Shown here: positions 41,501-55,073 of the stretch, one piece after another
Layout: every line of letters begins with the position of its first letter
Numbering within the stretch: position 1 is the first letter of the stretch
NCBI GenBank assembly: GCA_049972045.1
Contig: JBMFKS010000001.1
Span: 11,536-75,535 of the forward strand
DNA length: 64,000 nt
Origin: Anaerolineae bacterium
Lineage (GTDB): Bacteria; Chloroflexota; Anaerolineae; B4-G1; DUEL01
Direction: 5' to 3'
Notes under the pieces: generated by a model
Told to the model about the DNA's origin: nothing
The model's input: the letters and a program-made list of their open reading frames with translations, nothing else
Databases searched by the model: none
Translations under genes and position numbers: made by a program

Positions 41501-42877
41501 ATGGAGTATGGGGTAGGAAGTAGGATGATGAGTCAGGCGGTGTTGTTTGAAGTGGAGGCCGAGTACGCGGGGGCCGAAGCCCGGAGGCTGGAGCAGAAAT
41601 ATGCCCATCGGATGCGGGAGGAGCTGCGGATGGGCCCCCTGGTCTCGTATGTGGGCAACAAGGAGGTTCCCCTTCTCCGTCTCTACCGCTACAAAGAGGC
41701 CTTCACATTCCGGTTCGTGGACGAGTGGCTCACCCGCTTCGGGGTGAATCGGGAAGACACCGTCTTTGACCCCTTCTGTGGAATGGGCACCACGCTGCTG
41801 GCGGCATCTTGTCGTGGGATATCCGCCATCGGCACCGATCGTCTGCCGGTGGCGGTGCTCATCGCCCGCACGCTGCCGCTTTTCTTTCAGGTCCGCCCGG
41901 GAGAACTGACTCGCATCTTTGAGTGCTTGCAGCACATTGTCCCTTCCGCCGAACCGGCCCCCGTCGCGGCCGACGTGGCCATTATGGGCGTCGCGTTCTC
42001 CCCGGATACTCTGCTGGCCCTGCGGCGCTGGAAGGCCGCCATTGACGGCCTGGAATCGCCGTTCCGGGAGATTTTCCTGCTCCTCTTTTTCTCGGTCCTG
42101 GAGCCCTGTAGTTACACATCTAAAGACGGCCAGTTCCTGCGGTTGAAGCGCACCAAGCGGCCAGCGGATCCGGAGGAGGCGCTGGCGGGAAAAGTGCAGG
42201 AGGCCGAAACGGACATCCGGTGGGTTCGGGAATTGGGCTGGGACATCGCCTTCCGGCCGTTCCGGGTCATTCTCGGCGACACCCGGCGGCTGGACGAGGT
42301 CCCCTTTGATCGCCCTCCGACGGTTATCATCACCTCTCCACCCTATGCCAATCGGTACGACTATACCCGGACCTACTCCCTGGAGCTCTGTTTCCACTTC
42401 GTCCGGAACTTTGACGAACTGAGGGAACTGCGGCACAGCCTGCTCCGTTCCCACATTGAGGCCCGACTTTCGCCTACGGAAGAAGCCCCCCATCCGGCCG
42501 TGCGGGAACTGGTGGACTTTCTGCGAGCGCGCGGCAAAGCGCTGAACAACCCCCGAATCCCGGATATGTTAACCGCGTACTTTGTGGACATGCAGAAAGC
42601 CATCCGGGAGTGGAGGAGAGTGTTGGCCCCTTCGGCACGTGTGGCGATGGTTGTGGACAATGTACGCTTTGAGGGCCGGATGCTTCCGGTGGATCTGATC
42701 CTTTCTGAAATGGCCGAGGAAGAGGGTTTCGCTGTGGAGGAAATCGTCGTCGCTCGGTACAAGGGGAACAGTTCCCAGCAAATGGGCCGCTACGGGCGCG
42801 TCCCGGTCCGGGAGAGTATCGTTGTCTGGAGGAAGCAGGGATGGCTTCGGACTCCCGACATCAAACCTGGTTTCTAG
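41501..42877 (+). CDS. DNA methyltransferase (amino-MTase; motif I FCGMGTT, motif IV SPPY)
   Basis: DPFCGMGTT at ~aa 90 and ITSPPYANRYDY at ~aa 320, separated by a long TRD-like region. SPPY favours N4-cytosine/N6-adenine amino-MTases. Lower GC than flanks. Confidence 0.7.
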   Translation: MEYGVGSRMMSQAVLFEVEAEYAGAEARRLEQKYAHRMREELRMGPLVSYVGNKEVPLLRLYRYKEAFTFRFVDEWLTRFGVNREDTVFDPFCGMGTTLLAASCRGISAIGTDRLPVAVLIARTLPLFFQVRPGELTRIFECLQHIVPSAEPAPVAADVAIMGVAFSPDTLLALRRWKAAIDGLESPFREIFLLLFFSVLEPCSYTSKDGQFLRLKRTKRPADPEEALAGKVQEAETDIRWVRELGWDIAFRPFRVILGDTRRLDEVPFDRPPTVIITSPPYANRYDYTRTYSLELCFHFVRNFDELRELRHSLLRSHIEARLSPTEEAPHPAVRELVDFLRARGKALNNPRIPDMLTAYFVDMQKAIREWRRVLAPSARVAMVVDNVRFEGRMLPVDLILSEMAEEEGFAVEEIVVARYKGNSSQQMGRYGRVPVRESIVVWRKQGWLRTPDIKPGF

Positions 42878-43776
42878 ACCAACTGACCAAGAGCGAGTTC
42901 TTCCATCAGAAACTCCATGAGTGGAAGATGCTATCGGTAGCCGAAGCCATTGAGGTTTTTAGAGGGGAAACCCTGGAATGGAACCTCTCCGACCTGGGCA
43001 TTTCTCAGTCCGCCTGGAACAGGGTCATCCACAGAGGGATCAGACCGGTCACTGTCTTTGCCCACCCGGATGTGCTGATGAGCATCCCCGGTTCTACGGG
43101 CTATTACCGGATGCTCTCTATGGTCTCCCAGAAATCTATGGCACGGGTGGGCCTGGCCGTGAATGCCTACGAGACGGGCGCATCTGCTCCCGACCGGGCC
43201 GCAGCCGAGCAAATTGCCCGTCATCTGAATCAGATTATCAGTCGCCTAATGGAGTTTGACGAGAAAGTCAATGCCCGGGAGTTTGACCTCTGGCGCGGCA
43301 TGGCAGCGGGAACCCAGGCGCAAGGTTCCTGGCAGAACGCCAAAGGCGAGCGCGCGGAAGCCCTGGTGAAAGGCCTGATCCAGCGGAGACTGCGTGAACG
43401 AGGCTGGGTGGTTGCGGAAAGCGCAGACGGCAGGCGTATGGAACTCTCTGACGGTCGCCTGGTTACCGTTGGCGACGAGCCCGATATCGCGTTCTACAAG
43501 GGAGGCCGAATTCGGGCGGCGGTAGAAGTCAAAGGCGGCATAGACCCCGCGGGCATTCTGGAACGTTTGGGTGCGGCAATGAAAAGTCTGGCCCGGGCCC
43601 GGGAAGAGAACCCCACTGCCGTGACCATCATGGTCGTTCAAGGTGCATCGCTCACCGATAGAGCCCGGGCGGACCTGGACCTCAACCGCCATATCATCAC
43701 CCACTGGTTTACCGTAGAGCGCCTTCTGACCGAAGAGGCCACCCGGGCCGAGGTTTTTGAACTATTGAATATCTAA
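42841..43776 (+). CDS. putative type II restriction endonuclease (PD-(D/E)xK-like)
   Basis: Overlaps the MTase 3' end by 37 nt. Candidate nuclease motif ...VTVGDEPDIAFYKGGRIRAAVEVKGG (D...E-V-K). No other family match recognisable. Confidence 0.5.
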   Translation: MASDSRHQTWFLDQLTKSEFFHQKLHEWKMLSVAEAIEVFRGETLEWNLSDLGISQSAWNRVIHRGIRPVTVFAHPDVLMSIPGSTGYYRMLSMVSQKSMARVGLAVNAYETGASAPDRAAAEQIARHLNQIISRLMEFDEKVNAREFDLWRGMAAGTQAQGSWQNAKGERAEALVKGLIQRRLRERGWVVAESADGRRMELSDGRLVTVGDEPDIAFYKGGRIRAAVEVKGGIDPAGILERLGAAMKSLARAREENPTAVTIMVVQGASLTDRARADLDLNRHIITHWFTVERLLTEEATRAEVFELLNI

Positions 43777-46574: not shown

Positions 46575-46795
46575 GAAAAAGTAAGATGTATTCAGCGACG
46601 ATTTCGTCAAAGTACCAGATTGTCATCCCTCGCGCGGTGCGGAAGCGGTTCGGGTTGAAACCGAAGCAGAAGGTGGTTTTTATCCCCCTGGGAAACACCT
46701 TGCGCCTGGTGGTCGTTCCGCCCATAGAGCATGCTCGGGGGATGTTCCCCGGCATAGATACCGATGTGGCCCGCGAAGAGGATGAGGAGCGATGA
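46571..46795 (+). CDS. AbrB/MazE/SpoVT-family (swapped-hairpin) small DNA-binding protein
   Basis: MYSATISSKYQIVIPRAVRKRFGLKPKQKVVFIPLGNTLRLVV is a looped-hinge-helix motif. No cognate toxin gene follows. Confidence 0.55.
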   Translation: MRKSKMYSATISSKYQIVIPRAVRKRFGLKPKQKVVFIPLGNTLRLVVVPPIEHARGMFPGIDTDVAREEDEER

Positions 46796-48222
46796 ACGGG
46801 ATGGACTCACCAGACTGGCTGGAGTACCTGGCGAACGGCCCCAAGGAGTACCCCCAGTCCGAACCCTTTGACCTTCTTCTCACCGGCGGCTTGCTGGTCA
46901 CCGGAGCGGGCATCCGGCGGGCCGACGTGGGCATCCGCGGCGAGGCCGTCGCCGCCGTTGCCCCGGACCTACAGGGCCACCCCGCCCGCGAAGCCATAGA
47001 CGTGACCGGCCATTACATCCTCCCCGGCGCCATAGACGTCCACGTCCACCCCGTCTACGAGGACGATGTGGAGGCCTGTTCCCGCGTGGCGGCTTACGGC
47101 GGCATCACCACCCTCCTCCACTTCGCCTATGCCCGCACCGGCGAGAGCCTCCTGGAGCAGGTGGAGCGGATGTTAGAGGACGGTCGGGCTCGCTCCCGGC
47201 TGGACTTTGGCCTCCACGGCGGCCTCTTTGAGGCCCCGCGCCAGGTCCCCGAAATCCCCCGGGTGATGGAATTGGGCGTCCGTACCTTCAAATTCTTCCT
47301 GGCCTACGTCAAGCAGAAATGGTACACCGATGACTACCACCTGCTCTGGGCGATGCACCTCCTGGCGGAACGGGGTGGCATGGCGATGGTTCATGCCGAA
47401 AATGGCGGCGGGATTGACTATCTGGAGGACCGCTACTGGGAGGAACTGGGCGGGCCCGATGCAGCGCACTTCTTCAGCGTCTCCCACCCCTCAGCGCTGG
47501 AGGAGGAAGCCGTCTTTCGGGCCATCTGCATGGCCGAAGTGGCCGATTGCCCCCTCTACGTCGCCCATGTGACCTCCGCGCGGGCCCTGCGGCCCATCCG
47601 CCAGGCCCGGGCGGAGGGGCGGCGGGTCTTCGCCGAGACCTGTGCCCAGTACCTGACGCTGACCGAAGATCTTTTGCGAACGCGCGGCGCGCTGGCCAAA
47701 ATCGGCCCGCCGCTGCGCACCGACGCCGATCGGGAGGCCCTCTGGCAGGCCCTGGCCGACGGCACCCTCTCCGTCGTCTCCTCCGACCACGCGCCCAAGC
47801 GCAAAGAACCCTTCGGCGACTTTCGGGAGCAACCCTACGGGTCGCCGGGCCTGGAGACGCTCCTGGTCGTCACCCACGACGAGGGCGTCAACCGGGGACG
47901 CATCTCCCTGGTGCGGCTGGTCCAGGTCCTCGCGGAGAACCCCGCCCGCATCTTCGGCCTTTACCCGAAGAAGGGCACGATTGCCGTCGGCTCCGATGCC
48001 GACATCGTCGTCTTTGACCCCCGACGGGAAAGGACCATCCGGGCCCAGGAGATGCATTCGGGGGCCGGATACACCCTCTACGAAGGCCGGACCGTCCTGG
48101 GCTGGCCCGTGATGTCGTTTCAGCGGGGGCATCGGGTGCTCTGGGAGGGGGAAGTGGTCGCCGAACCGGGGGCGGGGCAGTTTCTGCCCCTCCTGGAATC
48201 TCCCCCGACCGCGCCCCTTTAG
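46792..48222 (+). CDS. cyclic amidohydrolase (dihydropyrimidinase/D-hydantoinase-like)
   Basis: ILPGAIDVHVHPV (HxH metal site) plus other amidohydrolase-fold motifs (carboxylated Lys region, VSSDHAP). 476 aa. Confidence 0.75.
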   Translation: MNGMDSPDWLEYLANGPKEYPQSEPFDLLLTGGLLVTGAGIRRADVGIRGEAVAAVAPDLQGHPAREAIDVTGHYILPGAIDVHVHPVYEDDVEACSRVAAYGGITTLLHFAYARTGESLLEQVERMLEDGRARSRLDFGLHGGLFEAPRQVPEIPRVMELGVRTFKFFLAYVKQKWYTDDYHLLWAMHLLAERGGMAMVHAENGGGIDYLEDRYWEELGGPDAAHFFSVSHPSALEEEAVFRAICMAEVADCPLYVAHVTSARALRPIRQARAEGRRVFAETCAQYLTLTEDLLRTRGALAKIGPPLRTDADREALWQALADGTLSVVSSDHAPKRKEPFGDFREQPYGSPGLETLLVVTHDEGVNRGRISLVRLVQVLAENPARIFGLYPKKGTIAVGSDADIVVFDPRRERTIRAQEMHSGAGYTLYEGRTVLGWPVMSFQRGHRVLWEGEVVAEPGAGQFLPLLESPPTAPL

Positions 48223-48232
48223 AGCAGAAAGA

Positions 48233-48264
48233 TCGGCGGCGGGCGGCTTCGCCGCCCGCCGCCA
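48233..48264. terminator. perfect GC palindrome GGCGGCGGGCGGC-ttcg-GCCGCCCGCCGCC (bidirectional terminator candidate)
   Basis: It lies between the convergent hydantoinase and miaA genes. A near-identical hairpin recurs at 60151-60187. Confidence 0.45.
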
Positions 48265-48310
48265 ACTCCCAAACAAAACAGGGGGCCGAGGGCGTCGCCG
48301 TCGGCCATCC

Positions 48311-49240
48311 TCACCTCAGCCATTCCCGGACCGCTGCCAGAATCTCCTCCGGCGGCGTCCGGGCGGCGTCAAACCAGCGGATGCGCGGGTCGCTGGGGCG
48401 GAACCAGTTGTACTGGTGGCGGATGAACCGCCGGGTGTCCCGCCGAATGTGCGCCAGCACTTCCTCCAGCGTCGCCCGGCCCTCAAAGTACGGACGGAAC
48501 TGCCGGTAATTGAGGGCCGACATGGCCGGCAGATCCCAGCCGTATCCGGCCTCCAACAATCCCCGGATTTCCTCCACCAGCCCCGCTCGGACCATCTCCT
48601 CCAGCCGCGCGTCGGCGCGGGCATAGAGGGCCGGCCGGTCCATCGTCAGTCCGATCTGGAGGGCGTCGTAGGGTGGGGGGATTCGGCCCGGCCTCGCGGG
48701 GCCGGCGCGCAGGGCAACCTCCAGCGCTCGCACGACCCGGCGGGGGTTGCGAGGGTCCACGCGGGCGGCGGCCTCGGGGTCCAGCGCGGCCAGGCGGGCC
48801 AGGAGGGCTTCCAGCCCCTCCCGGCGGGTCTGCTCCTCCAGTTCGGCCCGCAGGGCGGGGTCCGGGGGGACGGCGGGGGGAGTCCAGCCCTCCACCAGCG
48901 CGCGGATGTACTGTCCGGTCCCGCCCACCACAATGGGCAGACGGCCGCGCGCGCGGATGTCGGCAATGGCCGCCTGCGCCAGGCGCAAAAAACGGGCCAG
49001 CCCCACCGTGTCATCAGGGTCCGTGATGTCTATCAGGTGGTGGGGGACCCTGGCCCGTTCCTCCGGGGTCGGCTTGGCCGTGCCGATGTCCATCCCCCGG
49101 TAGAAGAGGCGGGAATCGGCAGAGACCACCTCTCCCTCCAGACGTTCGGCCAGGTAGAGGGAGAGGGCGGTCTTGCCCACTGCCGTCGGCCCCACGATGA
49201 CCAGGACCTTAGCCGACGGTCCGGGAATGGAATCGGACAT
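48311..49240 (-). CDS. miaA: tRNA dimethylallyltransferase MiaA
   Basis: VLVIVGPTAVGKTALSLYLAERLEGEVVSADSRLFYRGMDIGTAKPT is the canonical MiaA P-loop and N-terminus. Confidence 0.85.
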   Translation of the reverse strand: MSDSIPGPSAKVLVIVGPTAVGKTALSLYLAERLEGEVVSADSRLFYRGMDIGTAKPTPEERARVPHHLIDITDPDDTVGLARFLRLAQAAIADIRARGRLPIVVGGTGQYIRALVEGWTPPAVPPDPALRAELEEQTRREGLEALLARLAALDPEAAARVDPRNPRRVVRALEVALRAGPARPGRIPPPYDALQIGLTMDRPALYARADARLEEMVRAGLVEEIRGLLEAGYGWDLPAMSALNYRQFRPYFEGRATLEEVLAHIRRDTRRFIRHQYNWFRPSDPRIRWFDAARTPPEEILAAVREWLR

Positions 49241-49637
49241 AGGTCAGCGTGCGGGTGATCAACTCCTTGGCCAGGAACAGTCCCTGCAAGTCGCGGGCCA
49301 GCACCTGTCCGACGGCGAGGGTATCCTTCGCCCCCTGCAGGGGAAGCCCGATCGCATCCAAGCGGAGCAGGCTGGGCTCTCCTTCCTCCCCCACCAGCAG
49401 AGTATCGATCCGGGCGGCGATTTTCCGCTCCGTGGGCGTCCCGCTGTAGCGCTTCCAGAGCACGTACAGCAGATAGGCGTAGAGGCCGTTCACGTGGAGG
49501 ATGTTCAGGAACTTGGAGACGGTGTGGGCGATCTCCTCCCCGCTCAGCCGGTCTTCCATCCTCAGGCCGTCCACGATGCGACGGGCATAATCGGCGCAGT
49601 AAAAGTCCAGGTTTTCCACCGCTTGTTGAACGCCCAT
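49209..49637 (-). CDS. Cmr5/Cas11-like small alpha-helical subunit
   Basis: 142 aa, all-helical. ...VSKFLNILHVNGLYAYLLYVLWK matches the conserved Cmr5 core (P.MILSNGLLQTLAFLLAK pattern). AAGGAGGGAAC RBS. Its 3' end overlaps the miaA start by 32 nt. Confidence 0.55.
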   Translation of the reverse strand: MGVQQAVENLDFYCADYARRIVDGLRMEDRLSGEEIAHTVSKFLNILHVNGLYAYLLYVLWKRYSGTPTERKIAARIDTLLVGEEGEPSLLRLDAIGLPLQGAKDTLAVGQVLARDLQGLFLAKELITRTLTYVRFHSRTVG

Positions 49638-49640
49638 CGT

Positions 49641-49720
49641 TCCCTCCTTATCCCTACTCCCTACTTCCTACTCCCTACTTCCTACTCCCTACTTCCTACT
49701 CCCTACCCTCTACTCCCAGA
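49641..49720. repeat. purine heptamer tandem repeat (mRNA sense GGAGUAG/GAAGUAG, 9 units) spanning the cmr4 stop and cmr5 RBS
   Basis: Plus strand has ctactcc/ctacttc x9 from 49654 to 49716. Every unit carries UAG and a GGAG-like SD. Confidence 0.7.
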
Positions 49721-50703
49721 TTCAACACCCGCAGCCGTCCCATCCCCCGGGTGTTTTTGCCGCCGATACCCAGGTATTCCACATAGTGCAGTCCTTTCTC
49801 CACCTGAGCCTGCACCCAGGCGATGTCCTGAGGGATGGGCTGACCGTCCAGCAGGAAGTCGCGCGGGTTCTTGTAGACCATCTGGAAGGAGAAGAGGGTA
49901 GCACGCGGGATCGCCTCGTAGGTGTAGAGGGCGCCGGTCAGCGCCGCGCCTGTGGAGCGGTCAATCGCCGTGGACGTGCGCACTTCCAGGTTATTGTTGA
50001 CCACCTGGGAGAACAGTTCGTCCGGCACCAGCACCAGTCGGTTCAGTATCTCCTCCGGCACGTTCGCTTTCTTCAGGCGGGCCACCCCCGAGGGGGTCAG
50101 CGGGGAGGTGGGGACGGCGACCGGCAACAGGAGCCAACCCAGGTTCAGCCGACGGCCCGGGAGCCCCGTCTGCAGGCGGAAGCCGTGCTCCGGCTTCAAC
50201 TGGATGTCCACATCTTTCGCGTCCAGCGCGCCTGACTGGACCAGTTCCTTCAGCCGCTCCGGCGAGGTCACCCAGACCGGCCCGAGCATGGAGGGGGCGG
50301 GGAAGAAGAGGGGGAAGCCGTCAAAGGCCTGGACCATGCTGGGGGAGGTGCGGCCCCCGGGCTGGAGGAAGCCGTACGGGATACAGACAGGGCAATCCAC
50401 CCGGCCGCAGGCCCCGTCTTTTCTGCCCGTGGGGCCGGTCTGGTCGGCGCAACTGGCATAGCCGACCACGCCCGGCTTCACCTCCACCGGTCGGCGGTAC
50501 TTCTCCGGGTAGTGCATAGCGGTGTAGGTCCGGGCGACGCCGGCCAGACTGGTCGCCGGGATTTTGGGCAAGTTGGTGGCCGCGTCCCGGACGATGGGAT
50601 TATCCACCCGCCCCATCTGCATCTCCCCGCTGCCAATGTGGACGGGGTCCAGGGCCAGCGCGTAATACGTTTTCCGCAGATACGGCATGCTCACTTCGGC
50701 CAT
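49696..50703 (-). CDS. cmr4: Cmr4-like RAMP (Cas7 family) with zinc-finger insertion
   Basis: It aligns motif-by-motif with P. furiosus Cmr4: LDPVHIGSGE...GRVDNPIVRD (catalytic Asp position), IPATSLAGVARTY, YTYEAIPRATLF, G-rich loop YLGIGGKNTRGMG. An extra CADQTGPTGRKDGACGRVDCPVC insertion is present. Confidence 0.8.
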   Translation of the reverse strand: MAEVSMPYLRKTYYALALDPVHIGSGEMQMGRVDNPIVRDAATNLPKIPATSLAGVARTYTAMHYPEKYRRPVEVKPGVVGYASCADQTGPTGRKDGACGRVDCPVCIPYGFLQPGGRTSPSMVQAFDGFPLFFPAPSMLGPVWVTSPERLKELVQSGALDAKDVDIQLKPEHGFRLQTGLPGRRLNLGWLLLPVAVPTSPLTPSGVARLKKANVPEEILNRLVLVPDELFSQVVNNNLEVRTSTAIDRSTGAALTGALYTYEAIPRATLFSFQMVYKNPRDFLLDGQPIPQDIAWVQAQVEKGLHYVEYLGIGGKNTRGMGRLRVLNLGVEGRE

Positions 50704-50715
50704 CTCTCTCCTCTC

Positions 50716-51801
50716 TCAGGCAGGGATTCCCAGTAACCGGTCCAGCGCATCGGACAGGGCCGCCAGGGTGGGGAAGGTCTGCCACCCTACGTCTTTCAGG
50801 ACCACTACCCCCTCCGGTTCATCCACCCCGGAGACCTTCAGGTGGGCCTGACCGAAGCCGCGAGTGCTCTTGCTGGAGAAACCGTGGACGCGCAGCATCA
50901 GCACGATGGCCTCCCCCAGAGCCCGCAGGTCCTCCCGGACTTCCGGAAGGGCTTCTTCCGCCGTCCGGTCCATCAGGTCAAAGGGGAGGTAGAGGAGGGT
51001 GAAGACGCCCGAAGCGCCGGGCGGTACCGTCTCCAGGAGAACGGGCACCGTTCCGGCGCGGGTCCTGCGGCTGTGGGGGTTGATCACTTCCAGTCCGATG
51101 CGGTCAAAGTAGGTGGGGTAGGGACGGATCCGCCCCAGCATATTCCCCTCTTCGGCCAGTTCCTCCTCCTCATCCCGGGCCTGCCCGAAGAGGCGAAGGA
51201 GCAGCGGCGACGCCTCCCCTTCCGGCAACTGGCGGGTCAGGACGGTGCGCAGGATGCCTTTCCAGGTGCTGGCCCGGATCATGGGGACCTTGAAGACGCT
51301 GTCTTTCATCACCGGATTTTCGTGGATGTAGAACTCGTCGTCGTCCTTGCTGTAGAAGGAGCGGGCCAGTGTGAAGCGGAACTGGATGTAGGCCGAAAAG
51401 GGCGGCAGGTCCTGGAGGTTGATGCGGGGCGGGTAGATGCCCAGCCGGGCCAGTTGCTCCAGCCCGGGGCGGATGACTCCTTCTATGTACGGGGAGTCGC
51501 CCTTGCGCCGATACACCACTCCTTTATATCCGCCGCCGAAGCGGGGATGTCCGCTGCGGGCGAACTCCTTGACGTCGCTGGTCAGCCCCTGGGCCAGCAG
51601 GGAGACCTGGGCATAGGGCCAGACCAGTTCCCGATACGGCTCCTTATGATCGCCGACGATGCGGCGGACGTCGTCCTGGGTTTCGCAGGGGTAAGCGGCG
51701 TAGAAGTCGTAGGGGGGTCGGCGCTCCCCCGGCGGGGCCGGTCGGCGATTCCCCTCGCCCCGGGACGGGGGGCCAGATTGGGGTCGCGGTTTAGAGTTCA
51801 T
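50716..51801 (-). CDS. Cmr6-like RAMP (Cas7 family)
   Basis: VPMIRASTWKGILRTV (RAMP GSSxKG-type motif) and C-terminal G-rich loop GFSSKSTRGFG. Start chosen at MNSKPRPQ (GGAGG RBS), overlapping the upstream gene's stop by 11 nt. Confidence 0.6.
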   Translation of the reverse strand: MNSKPRPQSGPPSRGEGNRRPAPPGERRPPYDFYAAYPCETQDDVRRIVGDHKEPYRELVWPYAQVSLLAQGLTSDVKEFARSGHPRFGGGYKGVVYRRKGDSPYIEGVIRPGLEQLARLGIYPPRINLQDLPPFSAYIQFRFTLARSFYSKDDDEFYIHENPVMKDSVFKVPMIRASTWKGILRTVLTRQLPEGEASPLLLRLFGQARDEEEELAEEGNMLGRIRPYPTYFDRIGLEVINPHSRRTRAGTVPVLLETVPPGASGVFTLLYLPFDLMDRTAEEALPEVREDLRALGEAIVLMLRVHGFSSKSTRGFGQAHLKVSGVDEPEGVVVLKDVGWQTFPTLAALSDALDRLLGIPA

Positions 51802-52669
51802 CCAACACCTCCCCTCCGGTACGGGTGTCCGAAACGCCCAGCCGCTGGAGGGTCGCCATAACCTTCTCCAGCATCTCCCGGTCCCGGGCATATCCCCAGA
51901 AGCGGTGGACGGTCTGGAAAGAGAAGACCTTCTTGCTCACCCCGCGCCGTCCGCTGAGGAAGCCCGATGGGTCCACCCGGACCAGTTCGTTGACCTGGCT
52001 CAGGTCCAGATAGCGCCCGGTGTTGAAGAAGAAGAGGCGCAGGTCAGGCCATTCCGGTGGGGCCCGACGAAGCCGCTCCTGCATACGGGAAGAGTTATCC
52101 AGGATGCGAGCCAGCCATGCCTGGACGTCCTTCCGGGTGATGTTGGTGGGGAGGCGCAGCGGGGAGGCCAGCGTCACCAGGCCGTAATCCGGCTGAGGCG
52201 GCTTGAGGGTCGTCTTGCCGCCCAAGGAGCCGTAGCGGGTGATGAGCCAGACCGCCTTCGCCAACAACCAGCGCTCCTCCGCTTCGGTGGGCTTTACCTC
52301 CACGAAATTCATCGTGAAGGAGATGCCGGGCTGGCTGAGGTTGACCTCGTACCCGCCCTCCCCGTCGGTGAGGAGGAGGCGCAGTTTGCTGCTCCAGCCG
52401 CTGCATCCGAAGAGTCGACAGGCCGGACAGACATCCCGCAGGCCATCTTCCGGTTCGCCGGTCCGGCCGTAGGCCACTTCGTCAAAGGAGCACCGCTCGT
52501 CCCCGGTGGGGTCGCAGGCGTATCCGCCCAGACCCCGGATCAACGCCTCTGTCCACCAGCGGACGGAGCCCATCAGGCTACTCTCCTTTGCCTGCTCTGA
52601 CGTGCGCTCCACGTCCCCGGTCCAAATCGGGGCTAACGTTCGCAGGCTCACCACAATAGTTCGGGGCAT
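51791..52669 (-). CDS. Cmr1-like RAMP (Cas7 family) with zinc-finger
   Basis: PIWTGD...LMGSVRWWTEALIRG matches the Cmr1 SxxxKGxxRWWxRAL motif. CDPTGDERC...CPACRLFGC forms a treble-clef. AAGGAG RBS before the ATG at 52669. The ORF-track start at 52768 is a TTG. Confidence 0.6.
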   Translation of the reverse strand: MPRTIVVSLRTLAPIWTGDVERTSEQAKESSLMGSVRWWTEALIRGLGGYACDPTGDERCSFDEVAYGRTGEPEDGLRDVCPACRLFGCSGWSSKLRLLLTDGEGGYEVNLSQPGISFTMNFVEVKPTEAEERWLLAKAVWLITRYGSLGGKTTLKPPQPDYGLVTLASPLRLPTNITRKDVQAWLARILDNSSRMQERLRRAPPEWPDLRLFFFNTGRYLDLSQVNELVRVDPSGFLSGRRGVSKKVFSFQTVHRFWGYARDREMLEKVMATLQRLGVSDTRTGGEVLDEL

Positions 52670-52976
52670 AGAGGACTCCTTTCCTTGGGAGACAGACAAG
52701 GGGCCACTGAAAGGGATAGTCGTTGGCCTTCCGTGGCGTCTGATATAGTTTAGCATCCAATTATCCAAAAGTCAAGCCAGCAGCACGATGCGAGGATACA
52801 AGCAACCAGCCTCAGCGGTGAATGTCAGTCGGCTATTGGCGTGGTGTGGCAATCATCTGAAGAAAGGGGGAGCCCATCTGGCAATATTGTTGGCCTGAGG
52901 AATTCAGAAGAAAGGACAAGCGCCCTGGAGGGCTATCCAGCCCTTTCACCGGCTTACTAAAATTTGAACAATCACT

Positions 52977-53052
52977 CGCGAGCCGCCGCAGGCGGCGAAG
53001 CGATCTCCCGGCCCGCGGGGGATTGCTTCGGGCACTCCGCCGCCCCGAGGGG
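52977..53052. repeat. ~75-bp palindrome-containing repeat element (copy 2)
   Basis: cgcgagccgccgcaggcggcgaagcgatctcccggcccgcgggggattgcttcgggcactccgcc matches 14749-14821. It is followed by a CACGAAG-type cluster at 53040-53100. Confidence 0.55.
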
Positions 53053-53111
53053 GTGACAGCACGCCCAAGTCTTCGTGTTCTTGGTGTCCTTCGTGGTTTT
53101 CGGACAAGCGC

Positions 53112-55073
53112 TCACAGGCTGGCTTTCGGCGGCGAAGCCGCCGGGTCGGTGGTTGGCGGGGGGCAGACCCACCCCGGGGCCCAGAGGTCGCCAAAGGCGG
53201 CGCCGATGCCGCAGGCCGCGCAGGCGCTCCGACAATCGGGGCGGGTGCGAGCCTCCCGACTCCATTCCCACTCCCGCCACAGGTACCCCTTCCGCACCCC
53301 GATGTCCACCACGTCCCACGGGAAGACCTCCTCTCTGGACCGCTCCCGGTGGGCGTAGAACCCCGGGGAAAGCCCCGCTCGCTCAAAGGCCAGCGTCCAG
53401 GCGGTGAAGTCAAACCACTCGTCCCAGCCGTCAAAGCGGGCCCCTTCCGCCCAGGCCTGCCCGATGACCTCCCCCAGCCGCCGGTCGCCCCGGGAGAGCA
53501 CGGCCTCTATCAGGGTCATGCGCGGGTCGTTCCAACTGGGGTTGAGCCCACCGCCCCGCAGTCGCTCCCGCAGCACTTGCTGACGGGCCCGAATCTCCTC
53601 CAGCGGGGCCAGCGGCGCCCACTGGAAGGGAGTATGAGGCTTGGGGACGAAGGTGCTGATGGTGATGTTGACCTGTGCCTTGCGCCCGTGGACCTTTCGC
53701 CCTTCCGCCAGCACCGCCCGGGCCAGGTCGGCGATCGCCCGCACGTCCTCCGGTTCCTCCCCGGGCAGGCCAATCATGAAGTACAGTTTGACCGTCCGCC
53801 AGCCGCGCTGGAAGACCTCCCGGGCGATCTCCACCATCTGGGCCGCCGGGACCGGCTTGTTGATGGCCCGCCGCAGCCGCTCCGTCCCGGCTTCCGGCGC
53901 GAAGGTGAAGCCCGTCCGCCGCCCGCGACTGATCGCATCCGCCAGGTCCACTGAGAAGGACTCGATCCGCAGGCTGGGCAGGGAGATGGAAAGATGTCGG
54001 TCGGCGTACCGGTCCGCCAGCGCGCCCACCAGTTCGCCGATGCGGGAGTAGTCGGCGGAGGAGAGGGAGAGCAGGGCGATCTCTTCGTAGCCGGTGTGGG
54101 CCAGAATCTCGTCCACTGCCGCCAGGACCTCCTCCAGGGGCCGCTCCCGCAGGGGGCGGGTGACCATTCCGGCGTGGCAGAACCGGCATCCCCGGATGCA
54201 TCCGCGCTGGATCTCCACCACCCCCCGGTCGTGGGCGACGGTGATGTTGGGGACCAGCAGGCGGGTAGGCGGTGGGGGGAGGGCCGGCACCACGCGCCGC
54301 CGAACCGGAAAGGAGACATCCGGACGCAAGGGACGGATGCGGGCAATGGTGCCCTCGGGGTAGTAGTCCACCGCGTAGAAGCGGGGGACGTAGACGCCGG
54401 GGATGCGGGCCAGTGCCTCCAGCTGGGCTTCCCGGCCCTCATGGCGGGTGCGCTCGTAGGCCCGCACCACGTCCCCAATCGCCTCCTCGCCGTCGCCGAT
54501 GACGAAGGCGTCCACAAAATCCGCCACCGGCTCCGGGTTAAAAGCCGCGTGCCCTCCGGCGATGATCAGGGGGTGTCGGGTGTCCCGCTCCGCGCTCCGC
54601 AGGGGCAATCCCGCCAGGTCCAGCGTCTCCAGGAGATTGGTGTAGAGGACTTCGTAGGGGAGGCTGAAGCCCAGAATGTCAAATTCGGCCAGGGGATGGA
54701 AGGATTCCAGGCTGTAGAGGGGGATGGATTCCCGGCGCATGGCCGCGGCCATGTCGGGCCAGGGAGTGTAGGCCCGCTCCGCCAGGACGCCGTCCATCCG
54801 GTTTAGAATGTCGTAGAGGACCTGGATGCCCAGGTTGGACATCCCCAGGTCGTAGAGGTCGGGGAAGATCAGGCAGACACGGGTGGGGGTGGCGTCCCAG
54901 TCCTTGCGGACGGCGTTGACCTCGCCGCCGACGTAGCGGCCGGGGCGCTCCACGCGGGGGAGGATGCGCCCCAGGCGGGCTTTCCAGTGGGGGAGCATAG
55001 AGTTCTTCACCGGACTGAAGAAAATCGTTGTGCTCTCCACGTCCTCTGGGGTGAGTTTTTGCAGGAGATTCAA
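53112..55073 (-). CDS. TIGR03960-family B12-binding-domain radical SAM protein
   Basis: CIRGCRFCHAGM radical-SAM motif after an N-terminal B12-binding-like domain. The conserved C-terminal extension is typical of TIGR03960. 653 aa. Confidence 0.8.
   Translation of the reverse strand: MNLLQKLTPEDVESTTIFFSPVKNSMLPHWKARLGRILPRVERPGRYVGGEVNAVRKDWDATPTRVCLIFPDLYDLGMSNLGIQVLYDILNRMDGVLAERAYTPWPDMAAAMRRESIPLYSLESFHPLAEFDILGFSLPYEVLYTNLLETLDLAGLPLRSAERDTRHPLIIAGGHAAFNPEPVADFVDAFVIGDGEEAIGDVVRAYERTRHEGREAQLEALARIPGVYVPRFYAVDYYPEGTIARIRPLRPDVSFPVRRRVVPALPPPPTRLLVPNITVAHDRGVVEIQRGCIRGCRFCHAGMVTRPLRERPLEEVLAAVDEILAHTGYEEIALLSLSSADYSRIGELVGALADRYADRHLSISLPSLRIESFSVDLADAISRGRRTGFTFAPEAGTERLRRAINKPVPAAQMVEIAREVFQRGWRTVKLYFMIGLPGEEPEDVRAIADLARAVLAEGRKVHGRKAQVNITISTFVPKPHTPFQWAPLAPLEEIRARQQVLRERLRGGGLNPSWNDPRMTLIEAVLSRGDRRLGEVIGQAWAEGARFDGWDEWFDFTAWTLAFERAGLSPGFYAHRERSREEVFPWDVVDIGVRKGYLWREWEWSREARTRPDCRSACAACGIGAAFGDLWAPGWVCPPPTTDPAASPPKASL

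Follow-up and report, generated by a model that had tools for sequence, protein, structure and literature searches.

Overlap of cmr5 and miaA in an Anaerolineae genome, the probable scar of a deletion downstream of a III-C-derived RAMP module

Introduction

In Escherichia coli, miaA belongs to the amiB-mutL-miaA-hfq-hflXKC superoperon, in which miaA is not known to overlap another gene and internal promoters have been mapped. Promoters of miaA lie inside the upstream mutL, within the amiB-mutL-miaA-hfq superoperon, and promoters inside upstream genes are common. In this study, we analyzed a junction at which miaA overlaps the last gene of a four-gene operon of CRISPR-derived RAMP genes, cmr1-cmr6-cmr4-cmr5. 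The junction lies in a stretch of 64,000 nucleotides (nt), hereafter the window, from contig JBMFKS010000001.1 (positions 11,536 to 75,535) of the Anaerolineae bacterium assembly GCA_049972045.1. The overlap is probably the scar of a single deletion that occurred in the ancestor shared by a shallow clade of Thermoflexus-like lineages, with no shared function implied.

Among described CRISPR effectors, type III-E (Cas7-11/gRAMP) is a single fused polypeptide that originated from III-D, with accessory genes and CRISPR arrays alongside it (PMC12669027). Neither the 2025 classification (PMC12669027) nor the full-text literature searched was found to describe a module of III-C type that lacks Cas10, subscription-only papers being outside the scope of that search.

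Results and Discussion

Geometry of the cmr5-miaA junction

The genes cmr5 (49637..49209, minus strand) and miaA (49240..48311, minus strand) had 32 nt in common (49209..49240, minus strand), an overlap reported in the initial annotation and borne out by the list of open reading frames (ORFs) and by the sequence. The shared stretch consisted of the last 10 codons of cmr5 with its stop codon, and of the first 10 codons of miaA plus 2 nt. The cmr5 frame ended in ...ACC TAT GTC CGA TTC CAT TCC CGG ACC GTC GGC TAA, while the miaA frame began with ATG TCC GAT TCC ATT CCC GGA CCG TCG GCT AAG GTC CTG GTC ATC GTG GGG CCG ACG. The miaA start codon was thus composed of the 'AT' of cmr5 Tyr133 (TAT) and the 'G' of Val134 (GTC), i.e. 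tATGtc. The miaA frame is +1 relative to cmr5, so that the two frames overlap and the proteins are not fused; of the earlier wording 'translationally fused', the overlap stands, and the fusion is better replaced by 'overlapping, possibly translationally coupled'.

The boundaries of both genes were examined by comparison with homologues. Homologues of Cmr5 were 141-143 amino acids (aa) long and had a common C-terminal motif, RTLTYVRxxxR, whether or not miaA was next to them, and the end of cmr5 is therefore secure. The product of miaA (tRNA (adenosine(37)-N6)-dimethylallyltransferase, 309 aa) matched TIGR00174 over residues 12-293 with 264.2 bits, against a curated equivalog cut-off of 148.65, matched PF01715 (1.8e-79), and could be aligned end to end with the solved MiaA structures 2QGN and 2ZM5. 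The beta-strand and following P-loop (GPTxxGKT) expected of MiaA were present as KVLVIVGPTAVGKT, which aligned to residues 4-17 of 2QGN and to 2ZM5, with K11 opposite residue 4 of the Bacillus halodurans protein (2QGN). Because the TIGR00174 match, beginning at residue 12, and the 2QGN alignment run from K11/V12, beta-strand 1 requires the upstream ATG at 49240. An in-frame stop codon lies two codons 5' of this ATG, which by these alignments is the sole start retaining beta-strand 1; the start that had been called plausible is well founded.

The one alternative in-frame start is a GTG at codon 16, within the P-loop. If miaA began there (49195, 13 nt past the cmr5 stop), there would be no overlap and the arrangement would be an annotation artefact. 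Such a protein would lose beta-strand 1 (KVLVIV), which aligns to 2QGN residues 4-9 and TIGR00174 positions 1-5; furthermore, the GTG reads GTC in five of the six distinct junction sequences of the overlap clade described below, and no variant of the TAT codon providing the ATG occurs, in spite of the local codon bias. We consider this explanation barely credible. The same junction was found in 13 more records, from independent metagenome-assembled genomes (MAGs) and metagenomes, with synonymous divergence (dS) of ~0.3-0.6 from the window, and its recurrence in independent, diverged records excludes an assembly artefact.

Distribution of the overlap among relatives

The comparison set consisted of 112 fetched loci. 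Module loci, located among housekeeping genes, were the window (49209-52775, minus strand), L001-L015 and L017-L056. The 32-nt overlap was restricted to the window and the 13 records mentioned, all with Cmr5 at least 91% identical. In five further records, a spacer separated the module from a downstream miaA: between the stop of cmr5 and the Gly codon of the P-loop there were 107 nt in L019, 174 nt in L040, 376 nt in L021, and 220 nt in L003/L004, compared to 16 nt in the overlap loci. The initial annotation had proposed checking whether miaA of relatives carries the same upstream genes; this held only for Thermoflexales-like loci, against 28 module records in which the sequence extended for 1 kb or more downstream and contained no miaA, which represented at least 12 sequence-distinct lineages from Chloroflexota and other phyla. 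Module carriers outside the Chloroflexota were a Gemmatimonadetes MAG and a Cmr4 named Latescibacterota (L014/L015). The genes downstream of or beside the module varied, and included a TPR protein (L001/L002), a convergent RsmD-like methyltransferase (L007-L010), response regulators (L005/L006), glycosyltransferases (L013), and a PurF-like amidotransferase (L014/L015).

A neighbour-joining distance tree was built from cmr4 and cmr5, with the window and eight other overlap loci included. All of these formed one clade, in which the window was the first to branch. Its sister group comprised L019, L021, L040, and L022, the contig of which ends, while L003 was placed further out.

The spacers of three gap lineages held very stable hairpins. 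In L021, a 20-bp stem with CTTTCTTT directly after it made up a textbook intrinsic terminator, T tract included (z -7.7); three 49-nt tandem repeats and an ATGATG start came next. An 18-bp palindrome (z -5.2) and an own miaA ATG were present in L019, and a 15-bp GC stem (z -7.7) in L040; the structure of the L003 spacer was unremarkable (z 0.61). The GC stems of L021 and L040 resembled the terminator that follows miaA in the window (GCGGCGG...GAA(G)...CCGCCGC). The MiaA N-termini encoded at the gap loci were alike (L019 ...ARARPPLLVVVGPT; L021 ...ERPRHPLLVILGPT) and unrelated to that of the window, MSDSIPGPSAKVLVIVGPT. Homology between the window and the gap loci restarted at about CTGGTCATC, 6-7 codons before the P-loop Gly. 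The leader in the overlap clade, M[SC][DG][SF][IT]P[GAV][PR][SL][AD]K, corresponded to the cmr5 tail read in the other frame.

Two side observations concern these loci. The repeat at L021 6537-6690, with three tandem copies, is a GC-rich unit of ~49 nt, AGCGCAGGCTGTAGCCTGCGGATACAGGCCCGGCGGCCTGCGTTACCGT, and related motifs (GGCGGCCTGCGCTAC) occurred in intergenic positions of Thermoflexales contigs, namely in the spacer of L003 and in the sequence upstream of both L019 and L040; together they may constitute a dispersed intergenic repeat family. In L020 (8319-9964; Thermoflexales QH2S170213_bin_190, a member of the overlap clade), the module seemed to be partly deleted: cmr1 residues 1-115 were joined to 259-291, cmr6 matched weakly, and cmr4 was in two segments, suggesting a frameshift, while cmr5 and its overlap with miaA were intact. 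This damage could be decay or an assembly error.

Selection within the overlap

The overlap contained 10 variable sites in six distinct sequences, of which eight were third positions of cmr5 codons and thereby second positions of miaA codons. Of the 11 columns of the Cmr5 tail, 2 were variable, as against 8 of the 10 in the MiaA leader. This pattern points to cmr5 as the constrained frame and to the new MiaA leader as a neutral tail, of which only the ATG is fixed. The Tyr codon that supplies this ATG was TAT in every overlap locus, although local genes use TAC and TAT at a ratio of 87:17, and eight of the nine other third positions in the overlap were variable.

Taken as whole genes, miaA and the four members of the module all showed purifying selection in the overlap clade, where the window and L017 differed at a dS of ~0.3-0.5. 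Ratios of nonsynonymous to synonymous divergence (dN/dS) were 0.12-0.25 for miaA in this clade, 0.06-0.15 for cmr5, 0.08-0.19 for cmr4, and 0.06-0.2 for the module genes overall. Purifying selection over such divergence indicated that the arrangement is stable and compatible with function.

Origin of the overlap

As read from the aligned sequences, the overlap has a single origin in one clade, where the hairpin-bearing spacer and the native miaA start were lost and an ATG within cmr5 was recruited. In the history that we propose, the ancestor would have had a RAMP operon cmr1-cmr6-cmr4-cmr5 with its own promoter, ending in a strong stem-loop, and a miaA located 100-380 nt further downstream with its own start codon. 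A deletion from just past the cmr5 stop to ~7 codons before the P-loop glycine of miaA would then have taken away the hairpin, whatever promoter miaA may have had, and its native start along with ~12 codons. The shortened miaA frame would by chance have been open back into cmr5, where a chance ATG in the conserved Tyr133-Val134 codons could serve as the new start. The outcome would be a MiaA with a new, unconstrained leader of 10 residues and a 32-nt overlap in the +1 frame.

The reverse order of events would make the overlap ancestral and the spacers of L019, L021, L040, and L003 later insertions of hairpin or repeat elements, and the palindromes in the spacers and the three 49-nt tandem repeats of L021 do resemble mobile intergenic repeat elements. 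However, the gap loci have a common native MiaA N-terminus that is missing from the overlap clade, and in every lineage a start codon and 12 codons would, besides, have had to be restored by the insertion. In addition, the outgroup L003 has the gap, and the overlap loci form one derived clade. An ancestral overlap is therefore extremely improbable, and a single deletion is retained as the source of the overlap.

Transcription and translation of miaA

Promoters and terminators were assessed with consensus scans, whose reliability is poor for organisms other than model species. The strict promoter scan returned a single site on the minus strand of this region, a predicted sigma-70-type promoter of the RAMP operon upstream of cmr1 (52747..52775, minus strand; TTGACT, 17 nt, TG-extended TAAACT). 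The motif TTGAC[ATG]-17/18-(TG)nTA[AT]AA, together with the Shine-Dalgarno (SD) sequence GGAAAGGAG, was kept in 13 aligned 5' flanks of related loci, even where the upstream gene differed. No terminator-like hairpin was detected in the scan between this promoter and miaA. After miaA, an intrinsic-terminator-like hairpin was found at 48232..48266 (minus strand), with a 16-bp stem including 13 GC pairs, a GAA loop, and the tail CTTTCTGCTC (dG -39.6 kcal/mol, z -5.9, tail CUUUCU); the GC palindrome noted previously at 48233-48264 is this hairpin (48266..48232). It separates the end of miaA from a convergent amidohydrolase gene (46792..48222, plus strand).

The proposed transcription unit cmr1-cmr6-cmr4-cmr5-miaA ending at the hairpin fits the sequence, the scans having shown a conserved promoter and neither an internal terminator nor, in cmr4 and cmr5, an internal promoter, and one unit from cmr1 to the hairpin after miaA is the simplest reading and a likely one. 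Under the deletion history, most transcription of miaA would now be read-through from the cmr1 promoter, with termination at 48266..48232, and its translation from an ATG without SD sequence may be aided by ribosomes translating or terminating on cmr5.

The statement that there is no room for an independent miaA promoter was too strong, as a promoter could lie within the upstream coding sequence, though none was visible there. If miaA did retain its own promoter inside the coding sequence of cmr4 or cmr5, the overlap would affect translation only and the operon would not be obligate. Consensus scans are blind to non-canonical and alternative-sigma promoters, and weak promoter-like sites were present within cmr6 (51553..51523, CGGACA, 19 nt, TATAAA; and 51305..51278). 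Against this, the relaxed scan returned no site with at least 8/12 matches inside cmr4 or cmr5, nor anywhere between 51278 and 49240, the strict scan found the cmr1 promoter only, and the ancestral spacer that would have carried a miaA promoter has been deleted. We regard an internal promoter as unlikely, and read-through from the cmr1 promoter as the better account of miaA expression.

Several points weigh against the deletion and read-through account or parts of it. The tree was computed from two genes, cmr4 and cmr5, by a simple distance method, and its branches carry no support values. In Thermoflexales with Cmr5 identity as low as 71%, miaA still stands beside the module, separated by a spacer. 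This retained adjacency is ordinary synteny, which is no proof of absent selection. Co-transcription and any translational coupling were deduced from consensus scans only. No SD sequence is present before the miaA ATG at 49240, but neither is there one at the native starts of L019 and L021, so that its absence is no specific argument for coupling. The RNA fold at the junction was ordinary (z 0.08), without any unusual structure that could force coupling at the start of miaA, and hence there was no sign of an occluded start requiring upstream ribosomes. Finally, the miaA start lies 29 nt upstream of the cmr5 stop, a back-step that is long for termination-reinitiation.

Upstream of the predicted promoter, a spacer of ~340 nt (52776-53111; ~440 nt to the cmr1 ATG) separates the module from a radical-SAM gene of the TIGR03960 family (55073..53112). 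This spacer is AT-richer than its surroundings, and a terminator-like hairpin occurs in it at 52990-52977 and another at 52926-52913. The corresponding distance, from the end of the radical-SAM match to the cmr1 ATG, was only ~85-105 nt in the relatives L035, L039, and L020.

Functional relationship between the module and miaA

The initial annotation had taken the overlap as a hint of a function linked to tRNA or RNA modification, or of regulation of miaA by the module. In that case, the RAMP complex and MiaA would act in one pathway, for example RNA-guided tRNA recognition or surveillance, or the module would regulate miaA, and selection would have fused them. The genes do seem to belong to a single transcription unit, the overlap was maintained over dS ~0.3-0.6, and several Thermoflexales lineages have miaA downstream of the module. 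Genes for RNA modification also occurred near some loci, namely an RsmD-like methyltransferase and a TrmFO-like protein (L007), and MnmG and TruA (canonical locus L016); among the genes inspected, however, our impression was that such neighbours, including the radical-SAM gene of the window, are no commoner than expected by chance.

The distribution of the module argues in the other direction. The overlap is confined to one shallow clade, and adjacency of cmr5 and miaA did not recur across distant genomes, as it would in a functionally linked neighbourhood: no miaA was present in the sequenced flank of the 28 records from at least 12 lineages, where the downstream genes vary. In the sister lineages L019, L021, and L040, a strong hairpin insulates the module from miaA, and in the overlap clade the MiaA leader created by the overlap drifts freely. 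Selection for a joint function thus appears very unlikely as the cause of the overlap, and on comparative grounds a functional link of the module to tRNA modification is not supported.

A broader version of this idea holds that the module is a III-C backbone co-opted for action on host RNA, with no CRISPR array, and that its linkage to miaA in Thermoflexus is adaptive, e.g. RNA surveillance co-regulated with tRNA A37 modification. Strong purifying selection, the module's own near-consensus promoter, the retained catalytic Asp of Cmr4, the housekeeping surroundings, and the persistence of the overlap over dS ~0.3-0.6 are compatible with it, whereas nothing connects the module and miaA beyond one clade. 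This combination is highly improbable, and the overlap continues to be best explained by a deletion.

The RAMP module as a III-C derivative

The labels cmr1-like, cmr6-like, cmr4-like, and cmr5-like given to the four upstream genes were all corroborated by PADLOC, and for Cmr5 also by its fold. The likely start of each is preceded by a good SD sequence. The cmr1-like gene (51791..52669, minus strand, 292 aa) starts at ATG 52669 after the SD GGAAAGGAG, although the mechanical ORF extends to TTG 52768; its product matched Cmr1 in TIGR01894 (47.7 bits, cut-off 28.65) and in PADLOC (4.8e-12), and its homologues were 291-292 aa long. The cmr6-like gene (50716..51801, minus strand, 361 aa, ATG 51801) matched PADLOC Cmr6 (2.4e-62), and its product was 31-33% identical to that of the gene preceding Cas10 in the canonical III-C locus L016. 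'Cmr3-like' was considered as a name for this second RAMP gene and rejected, as the large subunit of L016 is Csx11, which gives the III-C gene order, in keeping with the PADLOC Cmr6 match. The stop of cmr1 and the start of cmr6 overlap by 11 nt (51791-51801; ATGAACTCTAA), and an overlap of the same size was found in L001, L005, L013, and L014, from different phyla; the cmr1/cmr6 overlap is therefore conserved across phyla, in contrast to that of cmr5 and miaA.

The backbone subunit (Cas7) is encoded by cmr4 (49696..50703, minus strand, 335 aa, ATG 50703), which was recognized by TIGR02580 (107.5 bits, cut-off 87) and PADLOC (Cmr4, 1.5e-41). The catalytic Asp34 is kept: 'GRVDNPIVRD' aligned with 'GVVDQPIQRE' of Pyrococcus furiosus Cmr4, and D34 was invariant in 17 homologues. 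Four cysteines of Cmr4 (C85, C99, C104, and C107; SCA...CG..DCPVC) were likewise invariant in the 17 homologues, including the canonical III-C one, and probably form a zinc-binding insertion in this Cmr4 lineage. A heptamer microsatellite (49651..49717, minus strand; GTAGGGA/GTAGGAA on the coding strand, TRF period 7, ~9.6 copies) covers the cmr4 stop and the spacer between cmr4 and cmr5. It is purine-rich and SD-like, with stop codons in every frame, and close relatives have 1-5 copies.

The small subunit (Cas11) is encoded by cmr5 (49209..49637, minus strand, 142 aa), which starts at ATG 49637, 5 nt after the SD AAGGAGG. It had no match in Pfam or NCBIfam and matched the PADLOC profile 'CAS-III-C effector_SS' (1.5e-17). 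Its AlphaFold2 model (pLDDT 91.5) had an all-helical Cmr5 fold, the 17 best PDB fold matches in Foldseek all being Cmr5 (TM up to 0.65), and its best sequence-profile match in the PDB was Cmr5 4GKF (E 0.015). Together with its position directly after cmr4, these features are those of a Cmr5/Cas11 subunit.

Cmr1, Cmr6, Cmr4, and Cmr5 are thus present in III-C order, while Cas10, Cmr3, and an array are missing. No Cas10-like ORF was found between cmr6 and cmr4 (a gap of 12 nt) or elsewhere in the region examined. The Csx11 of L016, used as a tblastn query, had no match in the 55 module loci; Cmr3 of L016 had none in any module locus, and matched nearly all canonical loci with a contig reaching past cmr5. 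Relatives of Cmr5 separated in the same way: those at least 42% identical always had the four-gene arrangement without Cas10 and Cmr3, and those at most 31% identical belonged to canonical III-C loci (Cmr1-Cmr6-Cas10(Csx11)-Cmr4-Cmr5-Cmr3). A profile search of 1.84 billion representative proteins returned seven module-type clusters (50% identity) at 100 bits or more, followed, after a gap, by ~360 of canonical type at 68 bits or less.

Within the 64-kb window and 557 kb of flanks of the 55 module loci, the searches returned no CRISPR array, as compared to CRISPR-like arrays at 10 of 57 canonical loci; an array may exist elsewhere in the genome. Periodic repeats in L030 were considered as a CRISPR candidate and rejected as tandem coding repeats. 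The known RNAs detected in the window with Rfam amounted to one tRNA. There was no recurrent non-coding space beside the module for a guide RNA, and in L014 the module is packed against both neighbours, which argues against a conserved adjacent guide gene. We infer from these comparisons that the module is a rare III-C derivative without Cas10, Cas5, or a nearby array, kept functional by selection. By its gene content, the predicted complex keeps the Cmr4/Cmr5 backbone and the Cmr1/Cmr6 cap, and is without the foot that binds the 5' handle of CRISPR RNA.

Restriction-modification genes were also noted near the module. The window contains an N6_N4 DNA methylase and an XcyI-like endonuclease (41501-43776, plus strand), ~5 kb beyond miaA. 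In L015 (5777-7975), a methylase and an EcoRII-C endonuclease lie directly upstream of the module, and are missing in the otherwise syntenic L014.

Implications and comparison with described systems

The cmr5-miaA pair offers a clean, datable case of operon structure altered by accident. One deletion would have cost a housekeeping gene its promoter, its terminator barrier, and its start codon, and miaA would have survived on a fortuitous ATG and on the transcript of a neighbour to which it is unrelated. The event itself, a deletion that captures a gene into the neighbouring operon, is of an ordinary kind, and its history is unusually clear. It cautions against guilt-by-association from one genome, since a tight overlap exists here without implied shared function. 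Because miaA appears to depend on the RAMP operon, this operon is probably expressed steadily, and enough to supply a housekeeping enzyme. The upstream RAMP module is a more interesting object than the overlap.

Compared with canonical III-C systems such as L016, the window genes are orthologous to III-C subunits, are in the same order, and keep the catalytic Asp of Cmr4. They differ in that Cas10 and Cmr3 are missing in all 55 module loci, no array was found, and the surroundings are those of housekeeping genes. With III-E (Cas7-11/gRAMP), the module shares the character of a type III derivative without Cas10 and Cas5 that consists of Cas7-like and Cas11 parts only; it differs as four separate proteins derived from III-C, with no array found. 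As in the E. coli miaA superoperon, miaA is apparently co-transcribed with unrelated upstream genes and its expression signals fall in upstream coding sequence, whereas the partner in the window is a CRISPR-derived operon with no visible internal promoter. Lastly, the junction resembles other same-strand overlapping or translationally coupled gene pairs in being out of frame, with a start inside the upstream gene, no SD sequence of its own, and an apparently shared transcript. It differs from them in that its genes are functionally unrelated, that any coupling would be putative, and that its 32 nt, as opposed to the usual 1 or 4 nt, would have arisen from one deletion and a chance ATG.

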